Source: a phage
DNA length: 64,000 nt
Sequence record: NC_129898.1
Strand: one strand, 5' to 3'
The notes beneath the pieces are model-generated. The model searched no databases, was not told where the DNA came from, and saw nothing but the letters and a program-made list of their open reading frames with translations. The position numbers and the translations under genes were made by a program. Each line of letters starts with the position of its first letter. The stretch's first letter is position 1. Shown here one piece after another: positions 21,473 to 50,082 of this stretch.

Positions 21473-22528
21473 TTATTTAACGTGCTTGAAAATACCAGCC
21501 AACTCGGTCATCGTCATGCGAGTGGTCTTCATAAGGTCTGTCATAGCCTTCTCCATGATTGGAGATACTACCATAAAGTTACCTTTGGTGAAACCTTTAT
21601 TCCAGTCGGTTACTAATAGTGGTTTAAGTCCGGTACCGAGACGCTCACCAGTTAAAGCACAACATTTTCTAATGTACGTGCTCTTAAATTGACTGAATGA
21701 CAGATCAACTTTCATACCTGCATCGTAGAACGTCTGGCAATAGAAAGTGTAAGCTTTGGCAATCTCAACATCGTCAGGCAGTGCAGGAACCTCTTCTGTG
21801 AGCTCTTCTTCGGCCCCTTGAGGCTCTTTTTCCTCTTCGTGATCCTGTTGCATCATTTCTTCAATCTCTTCTGTTACAGGCTCGTTTACAATGTCAGAAA
21901 TGTGCTTGTTGGCTCCACGATTAGCCATGAAGTTTTTAAAATCCTGCATTGGTGACATATCTTCCTCCCATTCTTCGTCAAAGAGTGCTAGTTTATCCTC
22001 TTCAGTTCCATATTGCAAGATGAAATCTTCAAAAGTGTAATCACCTTTCAATTTCTCCATACGCTCTTCGCTCAGGTGGAGCATCATCTGCTGGACAATT
22101 TTTCGATCAGTTTTGTCTTTAATCAAGATTGCGGTCTTTTTATCTACCAGGCAGTCTTTCAGAGAGTTACACCTCAATCCTACCACACAACAGTTATCAA
22201 TTGCGTAAGGACCTTCATCATCTATCCGCTCCAGAGATGGGTAGAAAGGATTCCCCAGCCCGTTTTCATCTGTGTGCATGTCGAAAGGTATAAGGGTATA
22301 GTCGCATACCCCCTCTCCTAAAAGTTTTTTACCAAATAGGAGGTATTCTTCCCATGACAGGTTGAACTCTATATCTCGTTTCCGTGCATTATTTTGTTTG
22401 CGTCTGTATTTTTTGAGCAGGCGCTCTAACTCTTCTGGTGTATAATATTTTTCAAGATTCATGAGTTGTCTCTTGTGCTCTGTAGGTGGAGAAATCTTAT
22501 CAAGCACCTGGGAATATGTCAACCTCAA
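21473..22528 (-). CDS. tandem HNH-like (His-Me finger family) domain protein, putative homing-endonuclease relative
   Basis: Two copies of a motif set (RKRDIEFNLS...C.YT...PSLERIDDEGPYAIDN and KVDLSFSQF...CALTGE...VTDWNKGFTKGNFMVV) flank an acidic linker. Confidence 0.4.
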   Translation of the reverse strand: MRLTYSQVLDKISPPTEHKRQLMNLEKYYTPEELERLLKKYRRKQNNARKRDIEFNLSWEEYLLFGKKLLGEGVCDYTLIPFDMHTDENGLGNPFYPSLERIDDEGPYAIDNCCVVGLRCNSLKDCLVDKKTAILIKDKTDRKIVQQMMLHLSEERMEKLKGDYTFEDFILQYGTEEDKLALFDEEWEEDMSPMQDFKNFMANRGANKHISDIVNEPVTEEIEEMMQQDHEEEKEPQGAEEELTEEVPALPDDVEIAKAYTFYCQTFYDAGMKVDLSFSQFKSTYIRKCCALTGERLGTGLKPLLVTDWNKGFTKGNFMVVSPIMEKAMTDLMKTTRMTMTELAGIFKHVK

Positions 22529-22535
22529 AAACGTG

Positions 22536-22564
22536 TTGACTTTACTCTAAATCCACGATATAGT
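22536..22564 (+). promoter_or_regulatory. sigma70-like promoter (TTGACT-17-TATAGT) in divergent intergenic region
   Basis: Hexamers with 17-nt spacer upstream of RBS AGGAG and ATG 22605. Confidence 0.55.
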
Positions 22565-22604
22565 TCACCCATTCGAAAGAAAACGAACACAGGAGTACTT
22601 AATC

Positions 22605-23504
22605 ATGGCAAATCTTAACAGCTTTAGCACTCGATGGAAACAAGATATCACAACTAATCTCTCTGCAGGCGATATCCTTTCTGCAATTTACGAGGCTTTG
22701 GATGATAAAGCTACTTCAAAATCGGTTTGTACCAACCCGTTAATTCCTATGGTAATGAAGGTGATTGAGCGTAGGTTGGTATCCGGATCTGATAAGTGGA
22801 CATATCTGGATAATGGAGGCCACACTTACTCCAACGGATATGTCGATATAAAAGTAGAATATGCGGTATCATATCGCCGGAGCGGCTCTGTAACTTTCAA
22901 CTTCTCTGGTGGTTTCCGATCTTTGGCAACTTCACCTTTTGTTTCCTCAGAGGAGAGGTTTGAACTTCCGTTCCTTTGGATGATGGCTAACGCGACAGGC
23001 AAAACCCCTGTAAGCATTCGCGTAAAATACAACTACAACGGATCTAGTAAGATCTATGCCGAGAGTGTCTCAGCAAGTTTTTATTTTGTGATGGGGGATG
23101 GAATCCTCAAACATATAAAGATGTGCGATATGCATGATGTTATAAATGAAGTGACTGATAAGAATGTTCTGGTGAAGGATCTCAACAATTTTTATACACC
23201 GGGAGACTATTACGTCAACCGTCCACTGTGCATCTTTAATGCTGTACACCCTTTAGGTGAGTATTTGATCGCCAATAGTGATATTGCCAATAACCGCTTC
23301 GAGGTAGCAAGAGTACAGAATGAGGTATTGACATCTTGCAAGAGTGGTGATAAGTTTACCGAAGAAGAGCTGGGTGTTTTAGAAATGATGGGATATAAGT
23401 GCAGTCTTTGGGTAGATGAGGTGTTTAATGACGGCATCTACGGACAGGATATTTACCCGTTAAAGAAGTATACTGATTCCAGTTTAATTTACGCGGAGAT
23501 TTGA
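22605..23504 (+). CDS. hypothetical protein
   Basis: 299-aa ORF, first gene of the plus-strand early block. Confidence 0.55.
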   Translation: MANLNSFSTRWKQDITTNLSAGDILSAIYEALDDKATSKSVCTNPLIPMVMKVIERRLVSGSDKWTYLDNGGHTYSNGYVDIKVEYAVSYRRSGSVTFNFSGGFRSLATSPFVSSEERFELPFLWMMANATGKTPVSIRVKYNYNGSSKIYAESVSASFYFVMGDGILKHIKMCDMHDVINEVTDKNVLVKDLNNFYTPGDYYVNRPLCIFNAVHPLGEYLIANSDIANNRFEVARVQNEVLTSCKSGDKFTEEELGVLEMMGYKCSLWVDEVFNDGIYGQDIYPLKKYTDSSLIYAEI

Positions 23505-23779
23505 CTATGATGAAGGCATGTGGTAGTGTATACTATGTGGGTGAAAATGTTCAGGCAGACAGTGTGTGGAAATCCATTAAGTCCACCACCGATGATGCCT
23601 TCTTGAGCGGGTTATGTTTCCCCAATCCTGGAGACATTCTCCCTCACCCTGGGGATTTTGTTGTTAACAAGACAGATGGTTATACTGTGTGCCTGATGGT
23701 TGAAAAAATCTTTTTAGACACTAGACACAATCACCGTCTTGTGTTAAGATTTCAAGAATGTAAAATGACAGTTGCCTAA
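23501..23779 (+). CDS. hypothetical protein
   Basis: 92-aa ORF coupled to the upstream gene. Confidence 0.45.
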   Translation: MTMMKACGSVYYVGENVQADSVWKSIKSTTDDAFLSGLCFPNPGDILPHPGDFVVNKTDGYTVCLMVEKIFLDTRHNHRLVLRFQECKMTVA

Positions 23780-23791
23780 GGAGGCCTACCA

Positions 23792-24148
23792 ATGTCTAAA
23801 GTTACTTATCGTGCAGCTATTTACTGCAATGAGCAACCAATCAATAGTGATGGTCACTGCTTTTTTAAAGAAAATCAGTTGGGCTGTATTGCCCTCCTTG
23901 ATGAAGGGGAAGGTTATATGATTGCATTGACAGGGTTTGAGCCTGAAGCCTTGGAAGCCAATCTGGACTACCTGGTAGAGAAGGGTGCTGCAGACTTGGT
24001 TGCCAATGGCCTCTCCATAAGCCTTGAAGAAGTGGAGCGCTTCATGGGCAACTACCGTGTAGTGCGTGAGTTTACTATCGAGGTGGAAACTCCAGAGTGG
24101 GGTAGCACCGAAACTAATGCTGAAGAAAAAGAAGAGGAGACAGAATAA
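23792..24148 (+). CDS. hypothetical protein with acidic C-terminus
   Basis: 118-aa ORF after RBS AAGGAGG. Confidence 0.5.
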   Translation: MSKVTYRAAIYCNEQPINSDGHCFFKENQLGCIALLDEGEGYMIALTGFEPEALEANLDYLVEKGAADLVANGLSISLEEVERFMGNYRVVREFTIEVETPEWGSTETNAEEKEEETE

Positions 24149-24405
24149 TGAAAGTACAGATCTTGACTAATGCCGAGAAGATGTTTATTGAAGATACGCC
24201 TTTTGAAACTGGTGAGCTACAGTTTGTATATTTTGTTGACTTAGATAAGGTTTTTCCTGCGCTTAATCTGGGTTTGGAGAAAGTACCTTATAAAACTCTA
24301 TGCCAGGTTGTCCGTGCCTTAGCAGCAGATGGAGAGTTCCACACCCTTGAAGATATCCAGACCTATGGGTATCTTGAACTGCAACGAGAAGAAGAGGTAG
24401 ACTGA
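24148..24405 (+). CDS. hypothetical protein
   Basis: 85-aa ORF with ATGA overlap. Confidence 0.45.
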   Translation: MKVQILTNAEKMFIEDTPFETGELQFVYFVDLDKVFPALNLGLEKVPYKTLCQVVRALAADGEFHTLEDIQTYGYLELQREEEVD

Positions 24406-24407
24406 TA

Positions 24408-24788
24408 ATGGCCCAGTGGAAGACAACAGTTGACCTTCATGATCAGTGGTTAGGACGCATAACTGAGGACGGGAAACTGGTAGAGTGGGACAACAAGCAT
24501 GTTAGCGAGTTGGCAAGTATTGTGGCTGGCAAGTTACGCTCCAAGTTCCCTGAACAGCTGGATCCTGATAGTTCAAAGTTCGATCCTGAGTTGGAGGATG
24601 TTGTATACTACTTCGATACCGTTGATGACTACGACGCGTGGTTTGCAGCACGAGAGCTTTACCCACAAGGCTCTGCTATGCGCCAGATGGAAGAAGATTA
24701 TCCTCCGTGTGAGCAATTCAATAGTGCAATGACTTGCCTCTATGATTGGGCAGATAAGAACCTTGTCTGGATTCGGACTGCATTTTAG
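24408..24788 (+). CDS. hypothetical protein
   Basis: 126-aa ORF. Confidence 0.5.
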   Translation: MAQWKTTVDLHDQWLGRITEDGKLVEWDNKHVSELASIVAGKLRSKFPEQLDPDSSKFDPELEDVVYYFDTVDDYDAWFAARELYPQGSAMRQMEEDYPPCEQFNSAMTCLYDWADKNLVWIRTAF

Positions 24789-24832
24789 TGGGTAGGGATG
24801 GCGGCAAGGATGCTGCTTAAGGAGTAGTAGAG

Positions 24833-25102
24833 ATGTTATACCAGCAGTACGAACTTCGTGCAGAAAAAGAATTAAATTTTGACAAAGATATTCACAGATA
24901 TTATTATGGGAAAGTTAGAGGGCAAGCAAGAAAGTGTACTCCAACACTTTTTTATGCCAGCAGACGACTAGCGCCAGAAGAGGCAACAGCAGAAAGGGTT
25001 GCATATGGCTGGAGAGTTGCGTATGATATTGACAGATCCGATGTGATGTCTGTTTTGGAAAACTTTGAAAACACTTACACACAAGTAGAGGACTTTTACT
25101 AA
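24833..25102 (+). CDS. hypothetical protein
   Basis: 89-aa ORF; stop overlaps the MoxR start. Confidence 0.45.
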   Translation: MLYQQYELRAEKELNFDKDIHRYYYGKVRGQARKCTPTLFYASRRLAPEEATAERVAYGWRVAYDIDRSDVMSVLENFENTYTQVEDFY

Positions 25103-26286
25103 TGTCAAGAAACGTATTCGAAAGTGGTCAAATCACTGTCCGCGAGTTGCCAGCTATTATTCAATTTGCCCAGCGTCATAACCGATCCGTCCTGATTTTA
25201 GGACCGATGGGTGTGGGGAAGAGTCAGGTGATGAAGCAGATTGCTGATAATATGTTCGGTGAGCGAGATGACAACCTGGTTGACGTGCGGTTGTCAGATA
25301 AAGATCCTGCTGACTTATCTGGACTGCCTATCCCTGTGGAGGCAGATGGAACTACACGTACCGTGTTTGCAATTCCAGAATTTTGGCCTGCGGACTCGGA
25401 CTGGAGCGGAATTATCTTTCTGGATGAGCTTACTCATGCAGATAACTACCTGCAGAAGGTTGCAATGCAAATTATGCTCGACCACAAGTGCGGCACCTAT
25501 GCATTTCCTAAGGGCTCTGTTTTTGTAGCTGCAGGTAACCGTGCTACAGACGGTGCTGTTCTTTCGGCACTCGAAGCTCCTCTAGCTAACCGCTTTATCA
25601 TTGTAGAAGTTACAAGCAATGCAGAGGTGTTTATTGAGGACTATGCATTCCTTAATGGGGTGCACTCCTCGGTAATTGGATATCTGAAAAGAGTCCCATC
25701 AGCCATCGATAATTATGAGGCCATGGCTGAGATTAATTGTCCATCTTTTGCTACACCGCGATCTTGGGTTGCTGCATCTGACATCCTGCACGATTTTGAC
25801 AGCGGTATTATTTCTGACGCTATGGCTCGTGTTCTTCTGCAAGGCGCTATCGGTCACACTGCAGCGGTAGAAATCTGGACCTACCACACCAAGAAACGAA
25901 ACTTGCCAGAAATCGGTCGGATTATGGCAGGGGGTTGCAAAGAGTATGTAGGTCCTAAGCAGCCAGACATCTTGTGGATTCTGGGGTCTGAAGGTTGTAT
26001 CGCTATTCGTAACATGATGGAAAATGCAAGTATCTCCGACGAAGATCTTGTCAGCTGTGTGGCAAACTTCCTTGATTTCCTTTGGGAAAATTTCAAGGAT
26101 GAGAACCGAGACTTTGTATTCTCAGTCTTTATGGCAATGATGAAACCCAACGCCCTAGGAAATGCCTTACTTATTGGTAAAGGTCGGGACAAGATCGTTG
26201 CTCAGCTGATCAAAGCATACCCAAACCTGATGAAGATTGTAAAAGAGTTTGGTGAAGAGTTTAGCGCCATTTTAGCTAAAGCTTGA
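25102..26286 (+). CDS. MoxR-family AAA+ ATPase (CbbQ/NorQ/CobS-like)
   Basis: Walker A LILGPMGVGKSQ and Walker B IIFLDELTHA at spacing typical of AAA_5/MoxR proteins. Confidence 0.75.
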   Translation: MSRNVFESGQITVRELPAIIQFAQRHNRSVLILGPMGVGKSQVMKQIADNMFGERDDNLVDVRLSDKDPADLSGLPIPVEADGTTRTVFAIPEFWPADSDWSGIIFLDELTHADNYLQKVAMQIMLDHKCGTYAFPKGSVFVAAGNRATDGAVLSALEAPLANRFIIVEVTSNAEVFIEDYAFLNGVHSSVIGYLKRVPSAIDNYEAMAEINCPSFATPRSWVAASDILHDFDSGIISDAMARVLLQGAIGHTAAVEIWTYHTKKRNLPEIGRIMAGGCKEYVGPKQPDILWILGSEGCIAIRNMMENASISDEDLVSCVANFLDFLWENFKDENRDFVFSVFMAMMKPNALGNALLIGKGRDKIVAQLIKAYPNLMKIVKEFGEEFSAILAKA

Positions 26287-26295
26287 GGAGGTTGT

Positions 26296-26676
26296 ATGGC
26301 TAAAGTAGGTAAGCGGGGAAACTACCTGGTGGTATTGACCGAGGAGCCGGAAAAGGAGTACGAATGCAGCTCCACTTGCGTGATCGATATCCGAGAAAAA
26401 GATGTAGATGAAATCTGGTTTAAAATATTGGACGCTTGCGACAGCAGTGACTATTTCTTCATCTATGTCAACGATAAAGCGGGGTTCTTCCATGACGATG
26501 GAGAGTTACCGTATGAAATCTATGAACTTGTAGAGGCTTGCCATCGTGGAGATGCGGAGTTGTTTGGTCTACGGCTGAAAAGTGGTAAGTTCTTCTACCA
26601 AGACGAATGCATGAATCTTCACAACTTCGTAGAGGGAACTTGCAACGATGGAGAGATTCTGGCACACTACGACTAA
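26296..26676 (+). CDS. hypothetical protein
   Basis: 126-aa ORF after RBS GAGGAGG. Confidence 0.5.
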   Translation: MAKVGKRGNYLVVLTEEPEKEYECSSTCVIDIREKDVDEIWFKILDACDSSDYFFIYVNDKAGFFHDDGELPYEIYELVEACHRGDAELFGLRLKSGKFFYQDECMNLHNFVEGTCNDGEILAHYD

Positions 26677-26688
26677 TTTCTAAGACCA

Positions 26689-26718
26689 CCCCCGCTTCGG
26701 CGGGGATTTTCTATTTGG
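26689..26718 (+). terminator. rho-independent terminator
   Basis: Hairpin ccccgc-ttcg-gcgggg plus T-tract; same hairpin as at 515-533. Confidence 0.7.
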
Positions 26719-26725
26719 AGTTATT

Positions 26726-27226
26726 GTGAAAATTAAAATCTTTGCTATTATTTTGAGCGCATTTTTATCGCTGCCTGTTGTTGCAGCACCAAAACAAAAA
26801 GTATATCACACCTGCAAGCCATCGGATACTAAGGAGAACATTCTGGCATGCAATATCTACAGGGAAGCCAGAGGAGATGGCACGATGGGTATGTTGGCAT
26901 CTGGGTTTGCCACACTGAACAGGAAATCTCACCCTAAATACCCAGACACTATAAGAAAGATTGTCTACCAACCTAACCAGTTTTCGTGGACAAACCACGG
27001 CAAAACTTTTAAGGTGACAGAAAAAGATTCATGGGATCACGCTAAAAGTCTTGCAAAGATGCTTCTAAAGGTCTATAATAACAACCATGTTGCATACATG
27101 GCTATGGATATAACAGGTGGAGCAACACACTATCATACAACAAAAGTACGACCGGAATGGGCAAAAAAGATGCAGAGGACAGCTCAATTCGGGAGTCATA
27201 TCTACTACAAGGAGCGCAATAAATGA
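26726..27226 (+). CDS. SleB-type cell wall hydrolase (Hydrolase_2 family) with N-terminal signal peptide; candidate secreted endolysin
   Basis: N-terminal MKIKIFAIILSAFLSLPVVAAP signal-like segment; motifs NIYREARGDG and YQPNQFSW match the SleB family signature. Confidence 0.65.
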   Translation: MKIKIFAIILSAFLSLPVVAAPKQKVYHTCKPSDTKENILACNIYREARGDGTMGMLASGFATLNRKSHPKYPDTIRKIVYQPNQFSWTNHGKTFKVTEKDSWDHAKSLAKMLLKVYNNNHVAYMAMDITGGATHYHTTKVRPEWAKKMQRTAQFGSHIYYKERNK

Positions 27227-29205
27227 TTGTAAACAGTAATGAAACTAAAGCAGTGCTAACTGGGAATATGGAGGTCACAAGGGGATCAATTTCTCTGAAT
27301 AAAGAGACTTTTGGGTTAATCATTAAAGGGATTTATGAAGATAAGGTGCTGGCAAGCTGCCGTGAACCAATCTTCAATGCTGTAGACTCCCATGTTGAGT
27401 CTGGACGGAGTGATGTACCGATCATTATTCACTCTCCTACAGATCTTGAACCATACTTCTTTGTGCAGGACGTTGGCCTAGGCATGTCAGAAGAGATGGT
27501 CCGCAACACCTTCATGAACCTCGGTGAGTCAACCAAGCGCAATAGCAACGCTCTGGTTGGTAATAAGGGTGTTGGTTCAAAGGCCCCGTTCAGCATGGTA
27601 GACACTTTCGATGTAATCAGTGTGCACAATGGTGTGGAAAGCACATATCTATTGTTCTTGGATCAGGGCATCCCAAATGTCACCAAGATCCGTGAGCGGA
27701 AGACTGAAGAGCACAACGGGGTAAAAGTTCAGTTTCATGTTAAGAAAGAGCATGTTCTGAAATATCGCACTGCTATTGCATCATGTTTGCGCTATGCAAA
27801 ATTTCCGTTCACTGTCACCGATCCGATGACGAGCAAGATGCTGGAGGGAGACAAAGTAGAGGCGCAGTATTATTATGAAAAAGATGGTTGGAAGATGACC
27901 ATCCTGAAGGGCTATACCAGTTCTGACGAGAGTCGTGTGGTAATGGGTCACCAACCTTACCGTTCTAAGTTCCTGGAAACACTAACAGATTATCCTGCAA
28001 TTTGTGTAGAGATCCCTATCGGAGATTGCAATATTAACCCAGGGCGTGAATGGACCATAGAAGGTCACGATGATGGTGGATTCCAAGAGCGTTTGGAAGC
28101 TTTTGTCAAAGAAGGCATTCGCCTTCGTGGAGCAGAAGTTGTTGCAGAACTAGAGACAGCAAAAACATCCTCAGAAGCACGCGAGATGATGAAGAACAGT
28201 GGAGTGTTCGGGCACATCTTCGGTAAGAATTTTATGTATGACCGCTGGGAAGAAACAGGGCTAGGGAATTTGGGGGACTGCGAGATCTTCGCTGGCGGCT
28301 TAAATAAAGGCCGCATAGGTTACGCCTGCTACGGAAAGGTAGAATTCTTACGGGGAGTTTATTTAGTATTTAACGACGGAGACGGCAAATATAACCGGAA
28401 TAAGTGTAACTACTTAAGCGAGATCACCGGACGCAACGTTTTCTATTGCCGTAACACGGATCTGGTGAAAGAGTTTAAAGAGGCGGCACACCATCCGTTT
28501 TTTGCAGATACGGTCAAATTGTTATCAGAGCTCCCTCGCCGACCTGTGAAGAAAGGTGAAACAAAAACTCGTTATGAGCCCGGTTATTGGGTTAAAAAAC
28601 TTGAGAAGGATGGTTACTTCCGTCGTGAGCGTATTACCAAGGCAGAGTTCAGGAAGATTAAGCACTGCATACCGTATGAGGGGGATATCCAACGCGGAAG
28701 TTGTTGGCTAGGGCAGATGAGTAACATCTACCAGCAAAATTATGACCGTGTGCGTGCGGCACTCCAGATCCCTGAAGGTGAAGATCTGTACCTGGTATCA
28801 GAATCTCGTCTGCTTTGGACTGATCCTAATTGCCAATATGTTACAGAGAAGAATGTGGAACATTTGCTGAAAGAGGATGCTTGGAAATTCTTACTGACTC
28901 GCGCAGCAAATGAAACTTCATATGACAGCCTGTACAGACAGTTAGGTAAAATTATACCCATGCAGGATTTTGGAAATTATCAGCCACATTTCCACAAGTG
29001 GGAAGGTAGCACCACGTGGAAGTATGGTGAGCTGAATCATCGTGCCAAAGTCTTAATCGCCAACCGAGTTAAGTGCGGGAAGGCCTATATTGCAAGATTG
29101 GAAAAGAAATATCCACTTTTAAAGCATGTAGGCTTGAAATATTGGGACACCCCTGCTATGATTGAATACCGTGAACTGATCGATACAAAGAATAACATCA
29201 AATAA
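27223..29205 (+). CDS. GHKL-type ATPase domain protein, possibly rIIA-like
   Basis: N-terminal Bergerat-fold motifs: N-box EPIFNAVDS, G1 box QDVGLGMS, G2 box VGNKGVGSKAPFS; 660 aa; followed by a candidate rIIB-like gene. Confidence 0.55.
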   Translation: MIVNSNETKAVLTGNMEVTRGSISLNKETFGLIIKGIYEDKVLASCREPIFNAVDSHVESGRSDVPIIIHSPTDLEPYFFVQDVGLGMSEEMVRNTFMNLGESTKRNSNALVGNKGVGSKAPFSMVDTFDVISVHNGVESTYLLFLDQGIPNVTKIRERKTEEHNGVKVQFHVKKEHVLKYRTAIASCLRYAKFPFTVTDPMTSKMLEGDKVEAQYYYEKDGWKMTILKGYTSSDESRVVMGHQPYRSKFLETLTDYPAICVEIPIGDCNINPGREWTIEGHDDGGFQERLEAFVKEGIRLRGAEVVAELETAKTSSEAREMMKNSGVFGHIFGKNFMYDRWEETGLGNLGDCEIFAGGLNKGRIGYACYGKVEFLRGVYLVFNDGDGKYNRNKCNYLSEITGRNVFYCRNTDLVKEFKEAAHHPFFADTVKLLSELPRRPVKKGETKTRYEPGYWVKKLEKDGYFRRERITKAEFRKIKHCIPYEGDIQRGSCWLGQMSNIYQQNYDRVRAALQIPEGEDLYLVSESRLLWTDPNCQYVTEKNVEHLLKEDAWKFLLTRAANETSYDSLYRQLGKIIPMQDFGNYQPHFHKWEGSTTWKYGELNHRAKVLIANRVKCGKAYIARLEKKYPLLKHVGLKYWDTPAMIEYRELIDTKNNIK

Positions 29206-29215
29206 GGAGACCAAG

Positions 29216-32126: not shown

Positions 32127-32149
32127 TTAGTAAGACGTGAGTATAAAGG

Positions 32150-41586: not shown

Positions 41587-41596
41587 AGGAGGCAGA

Positions 41597-41968: not shown

Positions 41969-42044
41969 CAAGAAGTAAGATTGGATATAAGATGCTTCAC
42001 ACAAACAGAGAGTTGATTTTTAAATAATTGAGGAGACTGCTAAG

Positions 42045-42299: not shown

Positions 42300-42362
42300 T
42301 ACTTGACAACAGCGATAGGGCCTAATATAATGGTCCTATCAAAACGAAAGGAGACCACAACA

Positions 42363-43328: not shown

Positions 43329-43344
43329 TATCAGGAGACTTAAG

Positions 43345-43590
43345 ATGGCTGAAGTAGTTGCTCGTGCAGGACAGAAAGTGCGTTGTGTTGAAGTGGGTTT
43401 TGGTGGCAAAGGGTGTCAAAACTTGACTCAAGGTAAGGAATACACTGTTATTTCTGGCGGTGGTGACGAAAGTATTGTGTTCGATGATCATATTCTGGAT
43501 GCTGAAAACTTTGAAATAATTGACGATGATGGTGATCCGATCACCTGCCTGCTGAACGGGAGTTGGGGAACTTTCGAAGTAATTGGCTAA
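43345..43590 (+). CDS. small protein, possible distant member of the paralog family
   Basis: ATG 43345 after RBS AGGAGA; GKEYTVISGGGDESIVFDD pattern. Confidence 0.45.
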   Translation: MAEVVARAGQKVRCVEVGFGGKGCQNLTQGKEYTVISGGGDESIVFDDHILDAENFEIIDDDGDPITCLLNGSWGTFEVIG

Positions 43591-43627
43591 CAAATACCTG
43601 TTGTAATTTACAGAAGGAGATGCTAAA

Positions 43628-44038
43628 ATGGTGTCTCCTTTATGTTGTTCAAATAAAATCGGAGATTCCACAATGGAACAAATGAACGATCAAGCGTCGG
43701 TTGCGATGAACGAGCAAGAACAACCTCAAGACTTTTTCTTAGGGTTAAGCAAAGATCAAGTGTCTCTTCTGTTGGTACTTTCTTCTTTCATGGGGAGACT
43801 TCAGGAGCTTACACAACAACCGGAGGCTGAACAGTTATTTCAGGCCCTGCGTGAAGAAGAAAAATATCGTCGTTTGGATTATGCCTTAGGTTGGGTAGCT
43901 CAACAACGAGATATGCTAATGGCCCTTTCTGGGACAACAAGTTTTGCAATGGGACTGTTGGCTCAAGTCCAGGACAAATTAATTCAGGCAGGGTTTGCAA
44001 ACACAGCGACCACTAACGAAGAACAAGGAGACAAATAA
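43628..44038 (+). CDS. hypothetical protein
   Basis: 136-aa ORF after RBS AGGAGA. Confidence 0.5.
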   Translation: MVSPLCCSNKIGDSTMEQMNDQASVAMNEQEQPQDFFLGLSKDQVSLLLVLSSFMGRLQELTQQPEAEQLFQALREEEKYRRLDYALGWVAQQRDMLMALSGTTSFAMGLLAQVQDKLIQAGFANTATTNEEQGDK

Positions 44039-45309
44039 TGAGCGTTATTCAACAATTCACCAACCCGATGAATCCGCGTGAAACTGTTTTACTGGCTCAC
44101 GGTATGATTAAACGTGTCAGCATCAAGCCTATCAAAGGTGCTGATCCTACAACAGGTATTAAAACCACTGTGTGGCAAGGTAAGAAAATCGAGTCCAGTC
44201 ACACCATCTCTTTACTGATTTCTGAACTGGATTCTTCTGATAACCTACTTCAAGGTGGTGAAGAAGTTTGGATCAGCATGGGTGATAAATTGCTCAAACC
44301 CGGTCATCAAGATTCCGTCTCTGTTAAAATTGATGACAAGTGGGAAACAGTAACGCCAGGATGGATCGTAAATATCCCTTTAAAGGCAAATGAGCATAAC
44401 GGTAAGACCTACTACAAAGGCTCATTGGCTAAAATGGTTAAGCTGGGGGCAGGAGATGCTCCAGCAGCCCCACAGCAACAAAAACAGCAACAAGGCACAC
44501 AATCACAAGGCCAGAAGCAGAAACCTCAGCAGAATGCCAATCAGGACGTTTTACGCATCTATGGTGATGTGACTCAGATTGTTGGTAACGTGGTTACTGT
44601 CAATGACCACAAGATTGGCGAAGGTGCTATGGTTGTCTCCGATGAGCAGCTTAAAGACCTGGTGGTTGGCGGTCGTGTTGCAGCTATTGTTGACAAAGAC
44701 ACCGGGAATATTATCAGCGGCTTCAAGGCCTACCCGCCTAAAGCAGAGAACGGTACACAAGGTTCTGGTGGTAAGCGTAAATCCTCTTACGACCCCATCG
44801 GTGTAGAGACAGGGCACAGTATCAATGCGTTGCAGATCATTCTGGATCGCGGGTTTAAGATTGACAGTCCTTTAGATGTGGCTAAAACACTGCACGTGGT
44901 CACCATCGAGCTTAAGAAAGAGTACGCTCAAGCCACCAACCGAACTGAAGATGAAGTAGGTGCCAGTGTTGGTAATGCGGTATTGAACGCTTGTCGCCGT
45001 ATTGACAAGAAGACGAAAGTTGATGATTTTGCAGTAGCAATTACTGCAGAGGCAAAAGATGTCTTGACTAATCTTGCTGAACCGTTGTATGATTGGATCA
45101 AGAACGGTGCTGGAGCCACTGACCATCAAGAGCCTCAAGCTGCCAAACAGGAAGCCTCCCCACAGCAAAACACTGTAGACGCCCCTCCTGTAGATGATGC
45201 GGAAGATGACCCAATGGATCAGAATCCAGCACAGTATGACTTCTGTGATGACATACCTTTCGCTCCGGTGGGTTTGCAATATGGCAAAAGTAGAATCCAC
45301 GCATTGTAA
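44038..45309 (+). CDS. putative DNA-binding protein with Gln-rich linker and SSB-type acidic tip motif (DDIPF)
   Basis: 423 aa; low-complexity [25 protein letters not shown] linker; DFCDDIPF at 45247-45261 resembles the SSB C-terminal tip but is followed by 15 more codons. Confidence 0.35.
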
Positions 45310-45904
45310 GAGGTGCATCAAGTGCGGAGAGGTGAAAAACCTCTCCGAGTTCTACAAACACCCAAAGATGTCTGACGGTCATCTTAATAAGTGCAAAGAG
45401 TGTTGTAAGAAGGCCAGTAGGGAGGCTGACCAGTTTTCCCACGACTCTTCAGAAAAAGGTGTAATACGCGTGTTGTACAAGGCTCAAAAGTGCAACAGCA
45501 AGCAAAGAGGTCACCCTCCTCCGACTTACACCAAAAAAGAGTTTAAGGAGTGGCTATACCTGAACGGTTACAAAGAGTTGTATGACCAGTGGGTAGCCAG
45601 CGGATACGACAAAAGGAAAAAGCCCTCTTGTGACAGGATAGATGATTTCAAAGGGTACTCTTTTGATAATATCCGTTTAACGACCTGGGGAGAAAATAAA
45701 GACAAGCAGACGGAGGATATTCTGTTGCATAGAAGCACCAGCGGTAGACGGTGTAAAAATGTAAGGAGGTTGGACATGAATGGCAACGTTCTTAAAGAAT
45801 GGGTATCCCACAATTCTTGTAGAAGAGAAACCGGAATATGTGTTGATTACTACATTCATGAAAAAATTCCAGCTCCCGATGGATACCTCTATGAATACTT
45901 TTAG
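45281..45904 (+). CDS. HNH-family homing endonuclease-like protein
   Basis: ATG 45281 (track begins at 45194); N-terminal CxxC...CxxC cluster; motif [25 protein letters not shown]; overlaps the 3' end of the upstream gene. Confidence 0.55.
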
Positions 45905-45914
45905 CACCTAACTG

Positions 45915-45945
45915 ACATAGCCCTGCCCGAAAGGGTGGGGCATTT
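45915..45945 (+). terminator. rho-independent terminator
   Basis: Hairpin gccctgccc-gaaa-gggtggggc plus T-tract; duplicate of the element at 34794. Confidence 0.65.
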
Positions 45946-45966
45946 TTGTATAAGGAGATCTGAAAA

Positions 45967-46383
45967 ATGACATTAGAAGATATCATTGTTAAACCTGAGA
46001 ACTATGACCAATACAATCTATCAACTCAATCTGTGGACCTTGGATGCGCTACGGTCAGTGCGTGGCTGGTTAACGGAAAAGAGCTGGATAAATGCTTAGA
46101 AGCTCACATGACTGTGAACAAGTTCCTTGATGAAAATACTCACTGGCTTGAGGGTGCAGGCGTATATGCTTCATGGTTGGAGAGTATGGGATTCGACTAC
46201 CAATCTGAAGAGGGGTGGTGGAGCTATTTAGCTATCTGTCCAGAGACGCTACAATGCTTCATGAAATATTCTGAAGATTTGGAGTACCGGGCGAGGGTTG
46301 ATAGTGCTATTGCCCGTTATAGCCGTAAACCTTTTTCCCACGACATTAAAACTGTGGAAGAATTTGTTGAAGTTTTCTGTTGA
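45967..46383 (+). CDS. hypothetical protein
   Basis: 138-aa ORF. Confidence 0.5.
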   Translation: MTLEDIIVKPENYDQYNLSTQSVDLGCATVSAWLVNGKELDKCLEAHMTVNKFLDENTHWLEGAGVYASWLESMGFDYQSEEGWWSYLAICPETLQCFMKYSEDLEYRARVDSAIARYSRKPFSHDIKTVEEFVEVFC

Positions 46384-46479
46384 CACAGATTGAAAGGTGT
46401 GCAATTATAACTTCATAGAACGGGAGGACGTGATGAACGAAGAAAACTGGGATGTATAACTAACAGGAGGCCACTGCCC

Positions 46480-46677
46480 ATGATTTATCGAATCCGTGTA
46501 AGAGAAGATGCACCAGGCTGTTACTTTGACTGGCGTGGGTGGTGGTTTCTCCACCCGATGGATGGACTCACAGATAGAATGCTGGATGCTGCCCTTTATA
46601 CAGATACCGACATAGAATATAATCTCTATCTGAAGGACGGTATAGATAACGGTCTATTTGAAGCAATTCCTGTGTAA
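46480..46677 (+). CDS. hypothetical protein
   Basis: 65-aa ORF. Confidence 0.4.
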   Translation: MIYRIRVREDAPGCYFDWRGWWFLHPMDGLTDRMLDAALYTDTDIEYNLYLKDGIDNGLFEAIPV

Positions 46678-46745
46678 GAGGATGTGATAGCCATGTTTTA
46701 TGATCTTCCTATAGCGCCACCACCTGTTGAACACGGAGAACTAAG

Positions 46746-47171
46746 ATGACCTATGAAATGCCAAAACTGATTCGTGATGATGCCCAAAACGCTCACACCA
46801 TTATTATGGGCAAACGCATGGATATTATTTGTCATAAAGATTTCTGGGAAGGAAGTTACTTCACAGAGTATTTTGGTAAACTGGACAATGGTCTGCTGAT
46901 CCAGTTCTACACCGATGCGGAAAACAACATTCACTGGGAGTTCGAAACTGAAGATATCCATAAACTTTTCACCTTCCTCGGTATCAAGGTTGAGGCCAAG
47001 TTTGAAGAAGGTGAGTGCGACGATTGTGGATTCTACGAGGTAACAGATTTCTATCTTCCGAGTGGTGAGAACCTTTACTATGAAAGCCACTTCGGTAACT
47101 CTAATATGCCACAGAGCTGGACTGAGTTTTTTGAAATTGTGGAAGAGGAGCTGGCATATCGTGATTATTGA
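46746..47171 (+). CDS. hypothetical protein
   Basis: 141-aa ORF; stop overlaps the macro-domain gene start. Confidence 0.5.
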   Translation: MTYEMPKLIRDDAQNAHTIIMGKRMDIICHKDFWEGSYFTEYFGKLDNGLLIQFYTDAENNIHWEFETEDIHKLFTFLGIKVEAKFEEGECDDCGFYEVTDFYLPSGENLYYESHFGNSNMPQSWTEFFEIVEEELAYRDY

Positions 47172-47619
47172 TACTGTAGAGGGAGATTTAATCTCCCTTT
47201 TTAAGAGCGGCACTGGTCACCTGATCCACGGTTGTAACTGCTTCCACACAATGGGTAAGGGTGTAGCAAAACAGATTGCCCGTGAGTTCCCTCAAGCATT
47301 GGAAGCTGATAAAACGACTACCTACGGTTGCCTAAGTAAGCTAGGTGCGTTCTCTCGGTGGGAGCACTTATCTCCGAAAGGTATTGTATACGGAATCAAT
47401 CTGTACACTCAGTTCTACCCAGGGCCTAATGCTGAATATTTCTCAATTCTGAAAGGCTTTGAGCGAGTCAATGAGATATTTAAGGGATCGACTTTACCAT
47501 TCTACATCCCTAAGATTGGGTGCGGCATAGGCGGCTTGAAGTGGGGACACGTGGAGGACGTTATTAACCTTGCCACTTTTGATATAGATATTATCGTGGT
47601 GGAGTACAAAGAGTGTTGA
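47161..47619 (+). CDS. macro-domain protein (ADP-ribose binding / ADP-ribosyl hydrolase fold)
   Basis: GTG 47161; EGDLISL...LIHGCNCFHTMGKGVAKQI aligns with macro-domain N-terminal motifs (GD..., AAN...GGGV); IPKIGCGIGGL matches the phosphate-binding loop. Confidence 0.6.
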   Translation: MIIDTVEGDLISLFKSGTGHLIHGCNCFHTMGKGVAKQIAREFPQALEADKTTTYGCLSKLGAFSRWEHLSPKGIVYGINLYTQFYPGPNAEYFSILKGFERVNEIFKGSTLPFYIPKIGCGIGGLKWGHVEDVINLATFDIDIIVVEYKEC

Positions 47620-47673
47620 CAGCAGGATTTTGAGGTGGTATAGTCACCACAACGACTAAGACAGGGGAACACT

Positions 47674-47868
47674 ATGGAGACTAAAATCTTAATTCTAGCT
47701 GTGATAGATACAACAGAAGGAGCCATGTTTGAATCTGCAGGAGGGTATTTCTACCTGCCCTCTGGAAAAAGAACTTCCGAGCCGAGTAAAGATTCAATCC
47801 TTAAAGTGTTCCCGTGTGCTTTCTGGCTGGAGATTCTGATAGAGGATTGCAGAGGATTGGGGAGATAA
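47674..47868 (+). CDS. hypothetical protein
   Basis: 64-aa ORF. Confidence 0.4.
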   Translation: METKILILAVIDTTEGAMFESAGGYFYLPSGKRTSEPSKDSILKVFPCAFWLEILIEDCRGLGR

Positions 47869-47870
47869 TT

Positions 47871-48065
47871 ATGAGAAACAAGAAAGAGCTTTACTCTGGA
47901 GAGTGGATCAACGATCAACAGGTCGGAGAGGTAACCTGCTTCCGGTGCTTTACTCGGTACAATCTTAAAACTGCACCAAAAAGTGTTCCAAAGACTGATG
48001 GTTATTACATAAAAGAACCTCATTGCCCAAAATGCAAATGCCGATTATACTGGAGTAACCTGTAA
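47871..48065 (+). CDS. small zinc-ribbon protein
   Basis: ATG 47871 after RBS GGGGAGA; CxxC...CPKC motifs. Confidence 0.5.
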   Translation: MRNKKELYSGEWINDQQVGEVTCFRCFTRYNLKTAPKSVPKTDGYYIKEPHCPKCKCRLYWSNL

Positions 48066-48128
48066 AAGGTTGACATCTGAAAACTGCAGTATATAATACA
48101 AACATAGACTAGCAGAGAGGAACAAATT

Positions 48129-48320
48129 ATGGTAATTTTTAATCGAGACGGTATCATAGTTAGACAGCACCCATTCCTTGAATACTATCAAATTGAGCAA
48201 TGGTGTTACGGAGATTGCAGTCACTCCTATGGGCAAAGTTGGGGATATCGCACAGTTTTTGAATCAACAGATCTTGATAAAGTAAAACAGAAAGTTTTAG
48301 AACTTCTTAACAACAAGTGA
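48129..48320 (+). CDS. hypothetical protein
   Basis: 63-aa ORF. Confidence 0.4.
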   Translation: MVIFNRDGIIVRQHPFLEYYQIEQWCYGDCSHSYGQSWGYRTVFESTDLDKVKQKVLELLNNK

Positions 48321-48330
48321 GTATTATACT

Positions 48331-48663
48331 ATGGTAACATTAGAAAGACGTAAAGCTATCGCCGCCACACTGGCAGACATCTTTTGGGATTGTAATTTAA
48401 AAGATACCCGATATTGCGGCGCATCTATAGATGTATTATTCCCACGGCCCACCATTGTTGCAATGGGTAGCCTACTGGGCGTAGTTGCAGGTGCATGGGA
48501 TAAGGAAGGCGGTTTCTATATCTGGCAGCCTGACTACGGGACCTGGAAAGAAGTAAGAGGTGCTGAGGACTTTGGACCTGCAGCTGCTAAGATGGATGGC
48601 TGGGAAATTTATGTTGGAAACGACATGAAGCTGAAAGGCGAGATTGTTTACTGGTTACCTTAA
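48331..48663 (+). CDS. hypothetical protein
   Basis: 110-aa ORF. Confidence 0.5.
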   Translation: MVTLERRKAIAATLADIFWDCNLKDTRYCGASIDVLFPRPTIVAMGSLLGVVAGAWDKEGGFYIWQPDYGTWKEVRGAEDFGPAAAKMDGWEIYVGNDMKLKGEIVYWLP

Positions 48664-48683
48664 GAAAGTGCAGGAGATAAAGT

Positions 48684-48929
48684 ATGAACAAAGGGTGGAC
48701 ATTCGTAGACGGCGTTGAAAACATGCCTCTTGGAAAGTATATCGTAGCCATGGCTGACGAGAATGGCAATGTAGATTTCGGAGCTTGCGAGGTTGTTCTT
48801 GCAGGATCTGGTGACTATGTGCACAAAACTGGGGTAATTAATGGTCAGTTCTACTTTGATCACAACCCTGTTGTAGCGTATACGGCTATGCCAGAGTTCA
48901 AGTTCCCAAAGGAGGGTGCCGATGTTTAA
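48684..48929 (+). CDS. hypothetical protein
   Basis: 81-aa ORF after RBS AGGAGA. Confidence 0.45.
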   Translation: MNKGWTFVDGVENMPLGKYIVAMADENGNVDFGACEVVLAGSGDYVHKTGVINGQFYFDHNPVVAYTAMPEFKFPKEGADV

Positions 48930-49116
48930 GCTTAAATCTGCATGGAACATTGCTGTAGGTGATGAGATCCGCATTCCGGGTGGGAAGACCGTTATGAAGA
49001 TATCTCGTATTGAATACGAAGGTGACCGTGTATTCCACATTTTTGCAAAAGATGGTCGAGAAATTTATATACAGGCAGGCTCACACATCTATATTCGTAA
49101 AGGGGATGACAAATGA
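48916..49116 (+). CDS. hypothetical protein
   Basis: 66-aa ORF. Confidence 0.45.
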   Translation: MPMFKLKSAWNIAVGDEIRIPGGKTVMKISRIEYEGDRVFHIFAKDGREIYIQAGSHIYIRKGDDK

Positions 49117-49454
49117 CAGAGATCATCATTTCAACTGCAGGGTATGTATTCCTGACAATCATTGCGCTGATCATCTTGGTGGTGGTGTATGGATTTGTTA
49201 TCCTGCCTATTCTTGAGACATTTAGTTTGTGTCGGTGTTGGAGAAAGGCTTACGGACCACAGCCGTGGAAAGACTGGCCTCATCTGTTACGCATAGCGTT
49301 CTCCTATGCCTATGATCACTCCAGCAGTGCATGCATAACTGGGTACCACGCCCACAATTGGAACTGGGAAGGGTTGGGGAGATGGAATGTTACAAAGACT
49401 ATACCTCTACGCATGTACAAAGGAAAAGGTGGGATTGATGGGAATACCTGTTAA
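49113..49454 (+). CDS. membrane protein
   Basis: 113 aa with N-terminal transmembrane-like segment YVFLTIIALIILVVVYGFVILPIL. Confidence 0.45.
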   Translation: MTEIIISTAGYVFLTIIALIILVVVYGFVILPILETFSLCRCWRKAYGPQPWKDWPHLLRIAFSYAYDHSSSACITGYHAHNWNWEGLGRWNVTKTIPLRMYKGKGGIDGNTC

Positions 49455-50082
49455 AGACAGAAAAGTATGTGGTCGTGGAGTAAACGATTTAAAAGACAAA
49501 GTCCCAATGTACCAATCTGTTAATGGTAAGAGAGTACCAGAACCCCACTATGCTACATGGAAAGCATTATTCCAGAGGTGCTACGGCGATAACTCAAAGT
49601 ACCATACAGGTTGTGAAGTTGTAGAAGATTGGTGGTTGTTCTCAGAATTCTGGAAATGGATGGATACACAAGAGTGGAAAAGAGACGCTAAGAAGTTCAC
49701 TCTTGACAAAGATCTGAAAATCCCTGGAAACAGAATATACTCCCCAGAAACATGCATGTTTGTTCCACCACAAATAAACACCCTATTTGGCATAAGACAG
49801 GCAGCACGAGGGGATTTACCTTTGGGTGTGACACTTAGAAAAGATGTAAACAAGTATCTCGTGCATTGTCATCGAGATGGAAAAATTGTTCATGGCGGTC
49901 ATTTCGATGATCCACAGACAGCACACAAGGTGTGGCAAGAAATGAAACTTGAGGAGATGAAACTTCAGGCTATTAAAAACAAAGATGAGATTTGGCTGTT
50001 CGCCATTAAACGTGCAATAACTATCCTTGAGAATGATTTGAAAAATAATAAGGAGACTATAACATTGGTGAAATTTATTTAA
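49438..50082 (+). CDS. AP2-domain protein, putative HNH-AP2 homing endonuclease
   Basis: ATG 49438; C-terminal GVTLRKDVNKYLVHCHRDGKIVHGGHFDDPQTAHKVW resembles the AP2 DNA-binding domain; N-terminal W..F..RCY...GC.V...W.FSEFWKWM motif. Confidence 0.5.
   Translation: MGIPVKDRKVCGRGVNDLKDKVPMYQSVNGKRVPEPHYATWKALFQRCYGDNSKYHTGCEVVEDWWLFSEFWKWMDTQEWKRDAKKFTLDKDLKIPGNRIYSPETCMFVPPQINTLFGIRQAARGDLPLGVTLRKDVNKYLVHCHRDGKIVHGGHFDDPQTAHKVWQEMKLEEMKLQAIKNKDEIWLFAIKRAITILENDLKNNKETITLVKFI

Follow-up and report, generated by a model that had tools for sequence, protein, structure and literature searches.

The restriction endonuclease PacI (PDB 3LDY and 3M7K; group 20 of the His-Me finger nucleases in Jablonska et al. 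2017) is a type II enzyme from bacteria that works as a homodimer; it has two Cys4 zinc sites and a beta-beta-alpha-metal core that has lost the catalytic histidine. A loop tyrosine takes the place of this histidine, and Asp and Asn bind the metal (PMC5714182, PMC4081073; the role of N113 is described in PMC3996161). In the published classification of His-Me finger nucleases (PMC5714182), no Pfam family is given for the PacI group. The Srd protein of phage T4 (NP_049634, 248 aa) is the product of an early-region gene of a large virulent coliphage and has a single domain copy; passages of PMC4980113 and of PMC13232886, which each cite Qi et al. 2015, state that it binds RNase E at its catalytic half and makes host mRNA decay faster. 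Free-standing HNH homing endonucleases known from phages include the I-HmuI/HNH_3 and HNH-AP2 types, T4 Mob and the 'PacI-like HNHE' of lactococcal Skunavirus (PMC12724721). They are encoded by small genes located between conserved genes, occur sporadically at fixed sites, and combine a nuclease with a DNA-binding module.

The analysed window, a stretch of 64,000 nucleotides (NC_129898.1), comes from a Vequintavirus, an rV5-like E. coli phage with approximately 95% identity to B9-1, FV3 and YP-6. Three open reading frames (ORFs) in this window, 21473-22528 (minus strand, ORF1), 45281-45904 (plus strand, ORF2) and 49438-50082 (plus strand, ORF3), were called HNH-like endonuclease genes in a preliminary description. 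All three were found at these coordinates, and no extra paralogues of any of them were found within the window. The search of Pfam and NCBIfam gave zero matches at E<=1 for the three proteins. In particular, none of them matched the Pfam HNH, HNH_3 or AP2 families, or NUMOD1, NUMOD3 and NUMOD4 at E<=1, and the profile check proposed in the preliminary description was thus empty for all three. The empty result does not imply that the fold is absent, because the PacI-like branch has no Pfam model. Strong matches to PHROG families (phrog_3118 at 4.5e-112, phrog_1035 at 4.4e-41 and phrog_953 at 4.5e-65 for ORF1, ORF2 and ORF3, respectively) and, for ORF1 and ORF2, alignments to PacI upheld the HNH-like nature of the proteins.

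These PHROG matches, together with profile-profile alignment and predicted structure, point to the histidine-less, PacI-like branch of the HNH (His-Me finger) superfamily for all three ORFs; this fold assignment, taken jointly with the duplication in ORF1 described below, is very likely correct. The ORFs have the branch motif (D/E)-R/K-x-D...Y...N...N, and in ORF1 and ORF2 its register matches the D-R-x-D...G-Y...N...N motif of PacI. Where the first strand ends, at the position of the catalytic histidine, each protein has Arg or Lys (E-R-I-D in ORF1, D-R-I-D in ORF2 and D-K-D in ORF3). The family of the ORF1 N-terminal domain aligns in catalytic register with PacI (hhalign E 1.9e-5) and with ORF2 (E 1.2e-5). 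Residues E78/R79/D81/Y86/N90/N99 of ORF1 and D118/R119/D121/Y126/N130/N139 of ORF2 correspond to D92/R93/D95/Y100/N104/N113 of PacI; for ORF2 and PacI the phmmer alignment (E 0.17) has the same register as the hhalign one. The alignments of ORF3 with PacI and ORF1 are weak (hhalign E 0.009 and 0.28), and its weaker link to the fold draws mainly on the 'HNH' names of its PHROG families and on motif invariance. Residues D90/K91/D92/Y101/N114 are invariant or nearly so within the ORF3 family, and their probable PacI register includes a longer loop ahead of the tyrosine. ORF2 shares with PacI the pre-core helix and the N-terminal CxxC...CxxC ribbon, the only one of the two Cys4 zinc sites that it retains. 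ORF1 has neither site; both ORF1 and T4 Srd have single cysteines at the CxxC positions of PacI. ORF1 further differs from PacI by Glu in place of the first Asp and by the fusion of two copies, one of them degenerate.

The maximal form of ORF1 starts at a TTG codon at position 22528. The real coding sequence is most likely 21473-22462 on the minus strand (329 aa plus stop), with ATG 22462 as the start codon, because a predicted promoter falls within the 5' extension and most relatives begin with MNLEKYY. This sigma70-like promoter (TTGACA-17-TAAGAT with a TG element; 22494-22522, minus strand) lies directly upstream of the ATG, making ORF1 the first gene behind it, and has a predicted divergent partner on the plus strand (22536-22564). 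In 243 phage records, ORF1 homologues occur as one full-length copy each, from Vequintavirinae-like phages out to phages of Aeromonas and Vibrio (22-26% identity). Among 118 relatives, ORF1 occupies an identical position in 117. This is the pattern that the preliminary description had set against its own suggestion of mobility, and the suggestion does not hold for ORF1, which lacks the sporadic presence of free-standing homing endonuclease genes.

ORF1 is the orthologue of rV5 gp11, named an 'Srd homologue' in the rV5 paper (PMC3606486). Its residues 4-143 align with residues 4-133 of Srd (BLASTP 9e-8; hhalign probability 97%, with a range of 91-97% and E down to 4e-11 among the Srd comparisons). 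T4 Srd matches the PHROG family of ORF1, phrog_3118, at 1.5e-16, and the two proteins share the motif S-L-E-R-x-D...G/P-Y...N...N. Both are products of early-region genes of large virulent coliphages. The homology is confined to the N-terminal domain and the helical segment that follows it; the C-terminal 100 residues of Srd are unrelated to ORF1, which instead has an acidic linker and a second, degenerate domain copy. We are highly confident that ORF1 is a fixed core gene, not a mobile one, and a homologue of T4 Srd.

The layout of ORF1 reflects a tandem duplication. The N-terminal PacI/Srd-like beta-beta-alpha-metal domain (residues 8-112; 22127-22441, minus strand) is supported by hhalign and AlphaFold. 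It is followed by the helical segment, a predicted disordered linker of variable length (residues 150-228; 21779-22015, minus strand; 33% D+E) and the C-terminal copy found by profile alignment (residues 229-329; 21476-21778, minus strand). BLASTP between the two halves (E 5.2) did not detect the duplication, nor did a shallow alignment (E 0.11). With a diverse family of 11 sequences, the N- and C-terminal domains aligned at hhalign E 1.3e-5 and a score of 33.8; 100 column-shuffled controls had a mean score of 11.0 (sd 2.1, maximum 18.6). Both halves also match the N-terminal domain of T4 Srd, at residues 7-89 and 28-85 (hhalign E 4e-11 and 1.6e-7; BLASTP 9e-8 and 8e-4, respectively). In the AlphaFold model of the full-length protein the N-domain has pLDDT of approximately 90 and the C-domain of approximately 83. 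Folded alone, the C-domain yields a poor model (pLDDT 54); support for its fold comes from the full-length model and the sequence profiles. The preliminary description, which reported two copies of the same motif set separated by an acidic linker, was therefore right about the duplicated domain and the linker, but the set of PacI-type catalytic residues is kept in the N-terminal copy only. In that copy E78, R79, Y86, N90, N99 and K102 are invariant, and D81 nearly so, in a family diverged down to 24% identity. The C-terminal copy retains C268, D286 and N295; the E-R pair is gone, and F291 stands in for the tyrosine and E304 for the last asparagine.

The strict conservation of these residues suggests that the nuclease-type site of ORF1 is still used, for metal or phosphate binding or for cleavage. 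ORF1 could itself have nuclease activity, perhaps as a single-site nickase with one live and one dead PacI-type domain per chain; it would then attack host or phage nucleic acid instead of activating RNase E. The conserved residues align with the catalytic residues of PacI and are also found in T4 Srd. Moreover, PacI is a homodimer (PMC4081073), which a tandem duplication could mimic, and the confident modelling of both domains in the full-length protein, but not of the C-domain alone, suggests that they may pack together. On the other hand, ORF1 has Glu, not Asp, as its first metal ligand, neither PacI zinc site is present, and the passages on T4 Srd in PMC4980113 and PMC13232886 report no nuclease activity. 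We regard such a nuclease as rather unlikely. Another proposal is reflected in most database records, where the label 'anti-sigma factor' is given to ORF1, and in the note 'postulated decoy of sigma factors' for T4 srd; ORF1 also matches phrog_4592, 'decoy of host sigma70', at 2.1e-13, and its early promoter is compatible with a takeover role. This label is a postulate inherited from T4, and the neighbouring vWA/metallopeptidase gene is labelled likewise, which points to annotation transfer. The fold is that of a nuclease, no Pfam sigma-factor domain was matched, and the function given for Srd in the cited passages of PMC4980113 and PMC13232886 is stimulation of RNase E. An anti-sigma factor or sigma70 decoy is therefore very improbable. 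By analogy with Srd, ORF1 would most likely take part in host takeover early in infection. Whether this would proceed through RNase E is a more tentative matter: such a route is possible, but since the C-terminal part of Srd is absent from ORF1, ORF1 may lack the surface that binds RNase E.

ORF2 (207 aa) is a PacI-like free-standing gene, as judged from PHROG and hhalign matches and from its distribution. It corresponds to rV5 ORF213, annotated as 'endonuclease VII', and is called a 'putative homing endonuclease' in BASEL phages. The protein has the zinc ribbon at its N-terminus, a core with D118-R-I-D121...Y126...N130...N139, and a C-terminal domain of undefined type. Relatives at <=46% identity are found in unrelated phages beside RNA polymerase, terminase, SSB and primase genes. 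Among 116 matching phage records, ORF2 is present in 49 (42%) and absent in approximately 67, always at one fixed site with borders sharp to the base. Comparison with endonuclease-free alleles delimits a cassette of 640 bp (45259-45898, plus strand), located between CCT and TTTTAA of ...GATGACATTCCT|TTTTAACATCTAGTTAACATAGCCC, at the stop codon of the SSB-like gene. The carriers fall into two allele types that differ in their 5' ends. Insertion of type A gives the SSB-like protein an extension of 15 codons and a stop after its DDIPF tip (45262-45309, plus strand). On the other side of ORF2 is an intrinsic terminator, GCCCTGCCC-GAAA-GGGTGGGGC with a T run (45920-45951, plus strand). It is common to all alleles, and ORF2, being upstream of it, is therefore probably co-transcribed with the upstream gene. 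In the carriers, four to five substitutions are fixed within 11 nt of the right junction. The gene is intact, with no internal stops, and dN/dS of 0.02-0.10 indicates purifying selection.

ORF3 (214 aa) was assigned by its PHROG match, family motif and distribution. Its core L-D90-K-D92...Y101...N114 is followed by an AP2-like region at approximately residues 128-170. The AP2 domain named in the preliminary description is weakly supported: the window protein has no match to Pfam AP2, two of ten family members do (best E 0.0011), and the family profile aligns in register with the AP2 domain of ERF096 at a non-significant E of 0.58. The cassette of 771 bp (49421-50191, plus strand) replaces approximately 120 bp of the endonuclease-free allele of FV3 and B9-1. 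It changes the final codons of the gene upstream (49113-49454) and deletes the start of FV3_00183, a small downstream ORF. A search of 50,697 phage records found ORF3 DNA in only three, at one and the same site, and these three are among 123 relatives. The same site of a divergent metagenomic phage carries a relative with 77% identity. The family as a whole is multi-copy, with 2567 places in 1518 records, and is spread over unrelated phages with varied gene contexts. ORF3 is intact and under purifying selection (dN/dS 0.12-0.20). The preliminary description had also placed an endonuclease gene next to a polymerase gene; ORF3 does not adjoin one. In the relative VB-EcoM-WM, another HNH gene adjoins the polymerase.

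The comparison of insertion sites with relatives thus agrees with the mobility proposed earlier for ORF2, beside the ssb-like gene, and for ORF3, both of which are sporadic at fixed sites. Each lies at the 3' end of a conserved gene, overlaps its last codons and has its own Shine-Dalgarno sequence. In lifestyle and modular architecture they resemble the phage HNH homing endonucleases; compared with the I-HmuI type they lack the catalytic histidine and the Pfam HNH_3 and NUMOD signatures. On the basis of homology and population pattern, we consider it very probable that both are free-standing homing endonuclease genes. The nuclease core would act together with a DNA-binding module, the zinc ribbon in ORF2 and the AP2-like region in ORF3. 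Upon co-infection with a related phage that has the endonuclease-free allele, the enzyme could cut this allele close to the empty site; the endonuclease gene would then be copied in as the cut is repaired by recombination. The clustered substitutions at the junctions of endonuclease-carrying alleles probably protect them against self-cleavage.

An improbable alternative is that ORF2, and possibly ORF3, is an ancestral gene lost by deletion in many lineages, or that it now serves the phage, for example by competitor exclusion or regulatory DNA binding, and is not actively homing. The frequency of ORF2 and its two allele types imply an old association, and the endonuclease-free phages YP-6 and HMD-6 have the upstream flank of type-A carriers (FCDDIPF), as expected after precise loss or recombination. 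However, the empty sites in the endonuclease-free genomes examined are base-identical with an intact DDDIPF-stop, which independent deletions would not produce, and for ORF3 a gain is far more parsimonious than approximately 120 losses. The purifying selection is stronger than expected for a purely selfish, decaying element and would fit a serving role, but marker exclusion is biochemically the same as homing, and this variant mostly renames the benefit. In the Skunavirus study (PMC12724721), the endonucleases reported to reduce plating did not include the one PacI-like phage endonuclease tested.

Homing remains the preferred reading, and two of the three 'HNH-like' genes, ORF2 and ORF3, are in all likelihood ordinary selfish homing-endonuclease insertions. 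Taken as a whole, the three genes of this phage likely represent two different things, a core Srd-like gene and mobile insertions, that share one fold, the PacI-type His-Me finger (HNH) nuclease domain.

The 25-kb segment of the window at 20001-45000 matches 139 phage records, nearly all of them from Vequintavirus (rV5-like E. coli myophages). The closest are B9-1, S127 BCL3 and ECP26, with ~95% identity over 98-99% of the query. Sixteen or 17 'Campylobacter phage' records (MG0656xx, host Campylobacter jejuni) are 91-95% identical to the window genome throughout; the stated host is odd and suggests mislabelled or contaminating coliphages. All three endonuclease-like genes of the preliminary description are present: ORF1 (21473-22528 on the minus strand at its maximum, with a TTG start), ORF2 (45281-45904, plus strand, 207 aa) and ORF3 (49438-50082, plus strand, 214 aa). 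No further paralogues of these genes were found within the window by phmmer and motif regex. The preliminary description took the positions of all three to fit homing-endonuclease mobility; its observation holds, and its interpretation is right for ORF2 and ORF3 and wrong for ORF1.

None of the three proteins matches a Pfam-A or NCBIfam model at E<=1, so the profiles proposed for recognizing them, HNH_3, AP2 and NUMOD, all fail at this threshold (Pfam-A, E<=1). Nothing relevant was obtained in Pfam and NCBIfam scans for phage T4 Srd and two distant ORF1 homologues. Matches to PHROG profiles are strong. For ORF1 the match to phrog_3118 ('HNH endonuclease', 4.5e-112) spans the entire protein, and the N-terminal part has additional matches to phrog_1400 ('Srd anti-sigma factor'), phrog_4592 ('decoy of host sigma70') and phrog_1035. 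The latter family, named 'endonuclease VII', is the match of ORF2 (4.4e-41), while ORF3 belongs with phrog_953 ('HNH endonuclease', 4.5e-65). In profile-profile alignments the N-domain family of ORF1 is similar to the restriction enzyme PacI (E 1.9e-5) and, in the same register, to ORF2 (E 1.2e-5). Residues D92, R93, D95, Y100, N104 and N113 of PacI correspond to E78, R79, D81, Y86, N90 and N99 of ORF1 (numbering of the 329-aa form). By phmmer, ORF1 and ORF3 had no significant match among PDB sequences; ORF2 alone finds PacI at E 0.17, in register and with the N-terminal zinc ribbon included. PMC5714182, PMC4081073 and PMC3996161 describe PacI as a His-Me finger enzyme without the histidine, in which a loop tyrosine takes its role and a single metal is bound by Asp and Asn (N113). 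Together with the structural model of ORF1 presented below, these matches and alignments argue that all three proteins have an HNH-like fold of the His-less, PacI-like branch.

The predicted link to this branch is weakest for ORF3. It is based on the PHROG names, a family-invariant L-D-K-D...Y...N pattern and an hhalign E of 0.009 to the N domain of ORF1. The word-indexed homologue search yielded 25 relatives for ORF1 and 10 for ORF3. Two of these 10 ORF3 homologues match Pfam AP2 (best E 0.0011), and the ORF3 family profile aligns in register with the ERF096 AP2 domain at E 0.58, and the AP2 region previously proposed in ORF3 is a plausible candidate. For the class represented by ORF2 and ORF3, His-less PacI-like phage homing endonucleases, no Pfam or NCBIfam model was returned here.

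The mobility of ORF1 is not borne out. The preliminary description itself took presence at an identical position in all relatives as a sign against mobility, and the 2.4 kb around ORF1 are present in full in 117 of the 118 records matched; ORF1 is therefore considered a fixed gene. By tblastn, 243 records contain it, each genome with a single full-length copy; among them are Vequintavirus, Vequintavirinae-like phages of Salmonella, Klebsiella, Cronobacter, Erwinia and Serratia and, at 22-26% identity, phages of Aeromonas and Vibrio. It is the orthologue of rV5 gp11, a probable Srd homologue according to the rV5 genome paper (PMC3606486). Residues 4-133 of T4 Srd align with residues 8-143 of ORF1 (BLASTP 9e-8; hhalign probability 91-97%), T4 Srd matches the PHROG of ORF1 itself at 1.5e-16, and the same nuclease-site residues are kept in Srd and in the N-terminal copy of ORF1. 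ORF1 is a known Srd homologue; its PacI-type fold and tandem duplication are new points, though modest ones.

The 5' extension of the maximal ORF1 contains a sigma70-like promoter (22522-22494, minus strand; TTGACA-17-TAAGAT with TG). Given this promoter and the start used by most relatives, the ORF1 start is assigned to the ATG at 22462 (CDS 21473-22462, 329 aa), so that ORF1 heads a leftward early unit. The 142-bp gap between this ATG and the ATG at 22605 contains back-to-back sigma70-like promoters, 22522-22494 on the minus strand and 22536-22564 on the plus strand, which mark a divergent early control region (22494-22564). The minus-strand promoter sits within the 5' extension that had been taken up in the preliminary ORF.

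ORF1 is labelled 'anti-sigma factor', 'anti-termination protein', 'HNH endonuclease' or 'type II restriction endonuclease' in different records. All of these labels share one origin, an Srd homologue with a PacI-type domain in tandem whose catalytic residues are conserved in the first copy only. The 'anti-sigma' label goes back to a postulate made for T4, and nothing in our analysis supports it. T4 Srd was found to bind RNase E in the N-terminal, catalytic half of the enzyme and to speed up host mRNA decay (Qi et al. 2015, as cited in PMC4980113 and PMC13232886). By analogy with T4 Srd, the most likely role of ORF1 is an Srd-like one in host takeover. The adjoining gene (19979-21460, minus strand) contains Pfam DUF2201_N (putative metallopeptidase with an HExxH motif) and DUF2201 (VWA-like) domains. 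It is labelled 'HNH endonuclease' by phrog_1314 and RefSeq, and 'anti-sigma factor' in some records; these labels are probably annotation spill-over from ORF1.

The internal duplication of ORF1 around an acidic linker is real. It was seen only once the Erwinia, Serratia, Aeromonas and Vibrio homologues were added. The two halves show no similarity when compared with each other directly (BLASTP E 5.2), and hhalign with a shallow 12-sequence alignment of close homologues gives E 0.11. With an 11-member alignment reaching 24% identity, the N and C copies match at E 1.3e-5 with a score of 33.8, compared to 11.0 +/- 2.1 (maximum 18.6) in 100 column-shuffled controls. Both halves align to the same domain of T4 Srd: the N half at E 4e-11 (hhalign; BLASTP 9e-8), and the C-domain family, against Srd residues 28-85, at E 1.6e-7 (hhalign; BLASTP 8e-4). 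The AlphaFold model, built from 12 members of the family, has high confidence for the two globular parts (about 90 for N and about 83 for C), with residues 185-248 of the longer 351-aa form disordered. In this full-length model both halves have an equal order of elements: long helix, short strand, helix, beta-hairpin region and helix. Folded alone, the C domain has a pLDDT of 54, too poor for a fold search, and in a PHROG search it matches its own family only. The duplication is ancient.

The two copies differ in the putative active site. Six residues of the N copy, E78, R79, Y86, N90, N99 and K102, do not vary across the family, and D81 is nearly invariant. All that remains in the C copy is C268, D286 and N295; its tyrosine position has Phe, and Glu stands in place of the last Asn. 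The linker between the copies is 33% acidic, variable in length and predicted to be disordered.

ORF2 is located at the 3' end of an SSB-like gene. Its homing mobility is supported by several lines of evidence. The 2.5-kb query around ORF2 matches 116 records; ORF2 is covered in 49, and the rest lack ~640 bp. In an alignment of 15 alleles the empty, endonuclease-free site reads ...GAT GAT GAC ATT CCT TTT TAA CATCTAGTTAACATAGCCC, i.e. the last codons of the SSB-like gene (DDDIPF-stop) followed by a conserved intrinsic terminator. The inserted segment of 640 bp (45259-45898) has sharp borders between CCT and TTTTA in the allele alignment; the empty allele of FV3 and B9-1 is found around GATGACATTCCT / TTTTAACATCTAGTTAACATAGCCC. 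The ORF2 stop codon occupies the former stop position of the SSB-like gene. Two types of carriers were distinguished. In type A (the window, rV5, WM, CM1, DrSchubert and JEP1) the endonuclease has 207 aa and its gene overlaps the upstream gene by 29 nt. In type B (WalterGehring and bov10K2) it has 192 aa and a different zinc-ribbon N-terminus, and starts 8 nt past an intact DDSIPF-stop. Compared to all seven empty alleles, type-A carriers have 4-5 fixed substitutions within 11 nt at the right junction and more in the last codons of the SSB-like gene, as target-site immunity and co-conversion would produce. ORF2 is intact in every allele (dN/dS 0.02-0.10). Its closest relatives in phages other than Vequintavirus reach 46% identity at most; these phages are unrelated, and the genes next to the relatives vary. 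ORF2 is a homing-type insertion that is already annotated, as ORF213 'endonuclease VII' in rV5 and as 'putative homing endonuclease' in BASEL phages.

Type A and type B alleles (window 45281-45400 compared with WalterGehring and bov10K2) are near-identical from about codon 40 on, while their 5' ends and zinc-ribbon N-termini are unrelated and their junctions with the upstream gene differ. This mosaic indicates recombination within the endonuclease gene.

The type-A insertion also changes the product of the SSB-like gene (44038-45309). At its 3' end (45247-45309) type-A carriers have no stop after the SSB-type tip DDIPF, and the protein gains 15 residues; in endonuclease-free and type-B alleles it terminates in DDDIPF or DDSIPF. 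The protein matches phrog_4477 ('unknown function'), whose profile stops at residue 408, upstream of the extension, and has no PDB or Pfam match; the SSB label is putative. Partners of SSB normally bind its free acidic C-terminal tip. In type-A phages, rV5 among them, this tip is buried under 15 residues and the phages are viable. These alleles are a natural experiment that could show the importance of a free C-terminal tip to the SSB-like protein.

ORF3 DNA was found in only three of 50,697 phage records: YP-6 and 241Ecol014PP, where it is at the same site as in the window, and a short contig of EC22.5-2. Relative to FV3 and B9-1, a cassette of 771 bp (49421-50191) replaces ~120 bp; the empty allele of FV3 extends from ...CGCATGTACAAGCCTAAAAAC to CTTAGAAAATC. 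Through this exchange the upstream 109-aa gene has different last codons, and a small ORF downstream has lost its start. In a metagenomic phage of greater divergence, a 77%-identical relative follows the same upstream gene. With 2567 places in 1518 phage records the protein family is very large and multi-copy; dN/dS is 0.12-0.20. Presence or absence at a fixed site, sharp borders, an intact gene under selection and a dispersed family support the proposed mobility here as well, and ORF3 is best described as a new, rare homing-type insertion. The ORF2 and ORF3 proteins would cut the empty allele during co-infection, and the genes would be copied in by repair. Database records name them 'endonuclease VII' or 'hypothetical protein'. 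Apart from annotation they matter little; to the catalogue of His-less (PacI-like) phage homing endonucleases they add two insertion sites, mapped and with the empty-site sequences defined.

The ORF3 cassette and a 2-bp difference destroy the start and frame of FV3_00183 (window 50146-50211, FV3 1389-1643), leaving only a TTG-initiated remnant at 50183-50398; FV3_00183 is either dispensable or no real gene. Just 3' of ORF3 lies a repeat-rich stretch of ~1.1 kb (50400-51050) with no convincing ORF, and neither a tRNA nor an Rfam match was found in it. A 47-65-nt unit (core GTACTCGATCTGTTTTTCGTTT) occurs in it three times, at 50402, 50467 and 50541, besides further pairs spaced ~135 nt. The stretch could represent small RNAs, regulatory repeats or origin-like iterons. 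A 70-nt segment (50687-50757) is ~90% conserved in the distant phages LNA4, FENT2 and Kashira. The relative VB-EcoM-WM has ~1.4 kb more than the window over the 25-kb match. Its record, at 17675-21714, gives a DNA polymerase CDS of 3399 bp (2778 bp in B9-1) with an HNH endonuclease gene annotated after it. From the annotations of these two phages, this looks like a third variable endonuclease site of the phage group.

No paper linking Srd to the HNH fold was found in the literature searched. Since both ORF1 and Srd keep the residues of the nuclease site, that site may have a direct catalytic or phosphate-binding role. We speculate, while considering it rather unlikely, that the Srd family, including T4 Srd and the Vequintavirinae-like ORF1 type, comprises His-less PacI-type nucleases with a working active site, the ORF1 type being a single-chain pseudo-dimer made by duplication, with one live site and one dead copy. 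If so, the Vequintavirinae version would in effect be a built-in nickase or RNA-cutting enzyme, and the host mRNA decay credited to 'activation of RNase E' would at least partly involve the phage protein's own catalysis or substrate delivery.
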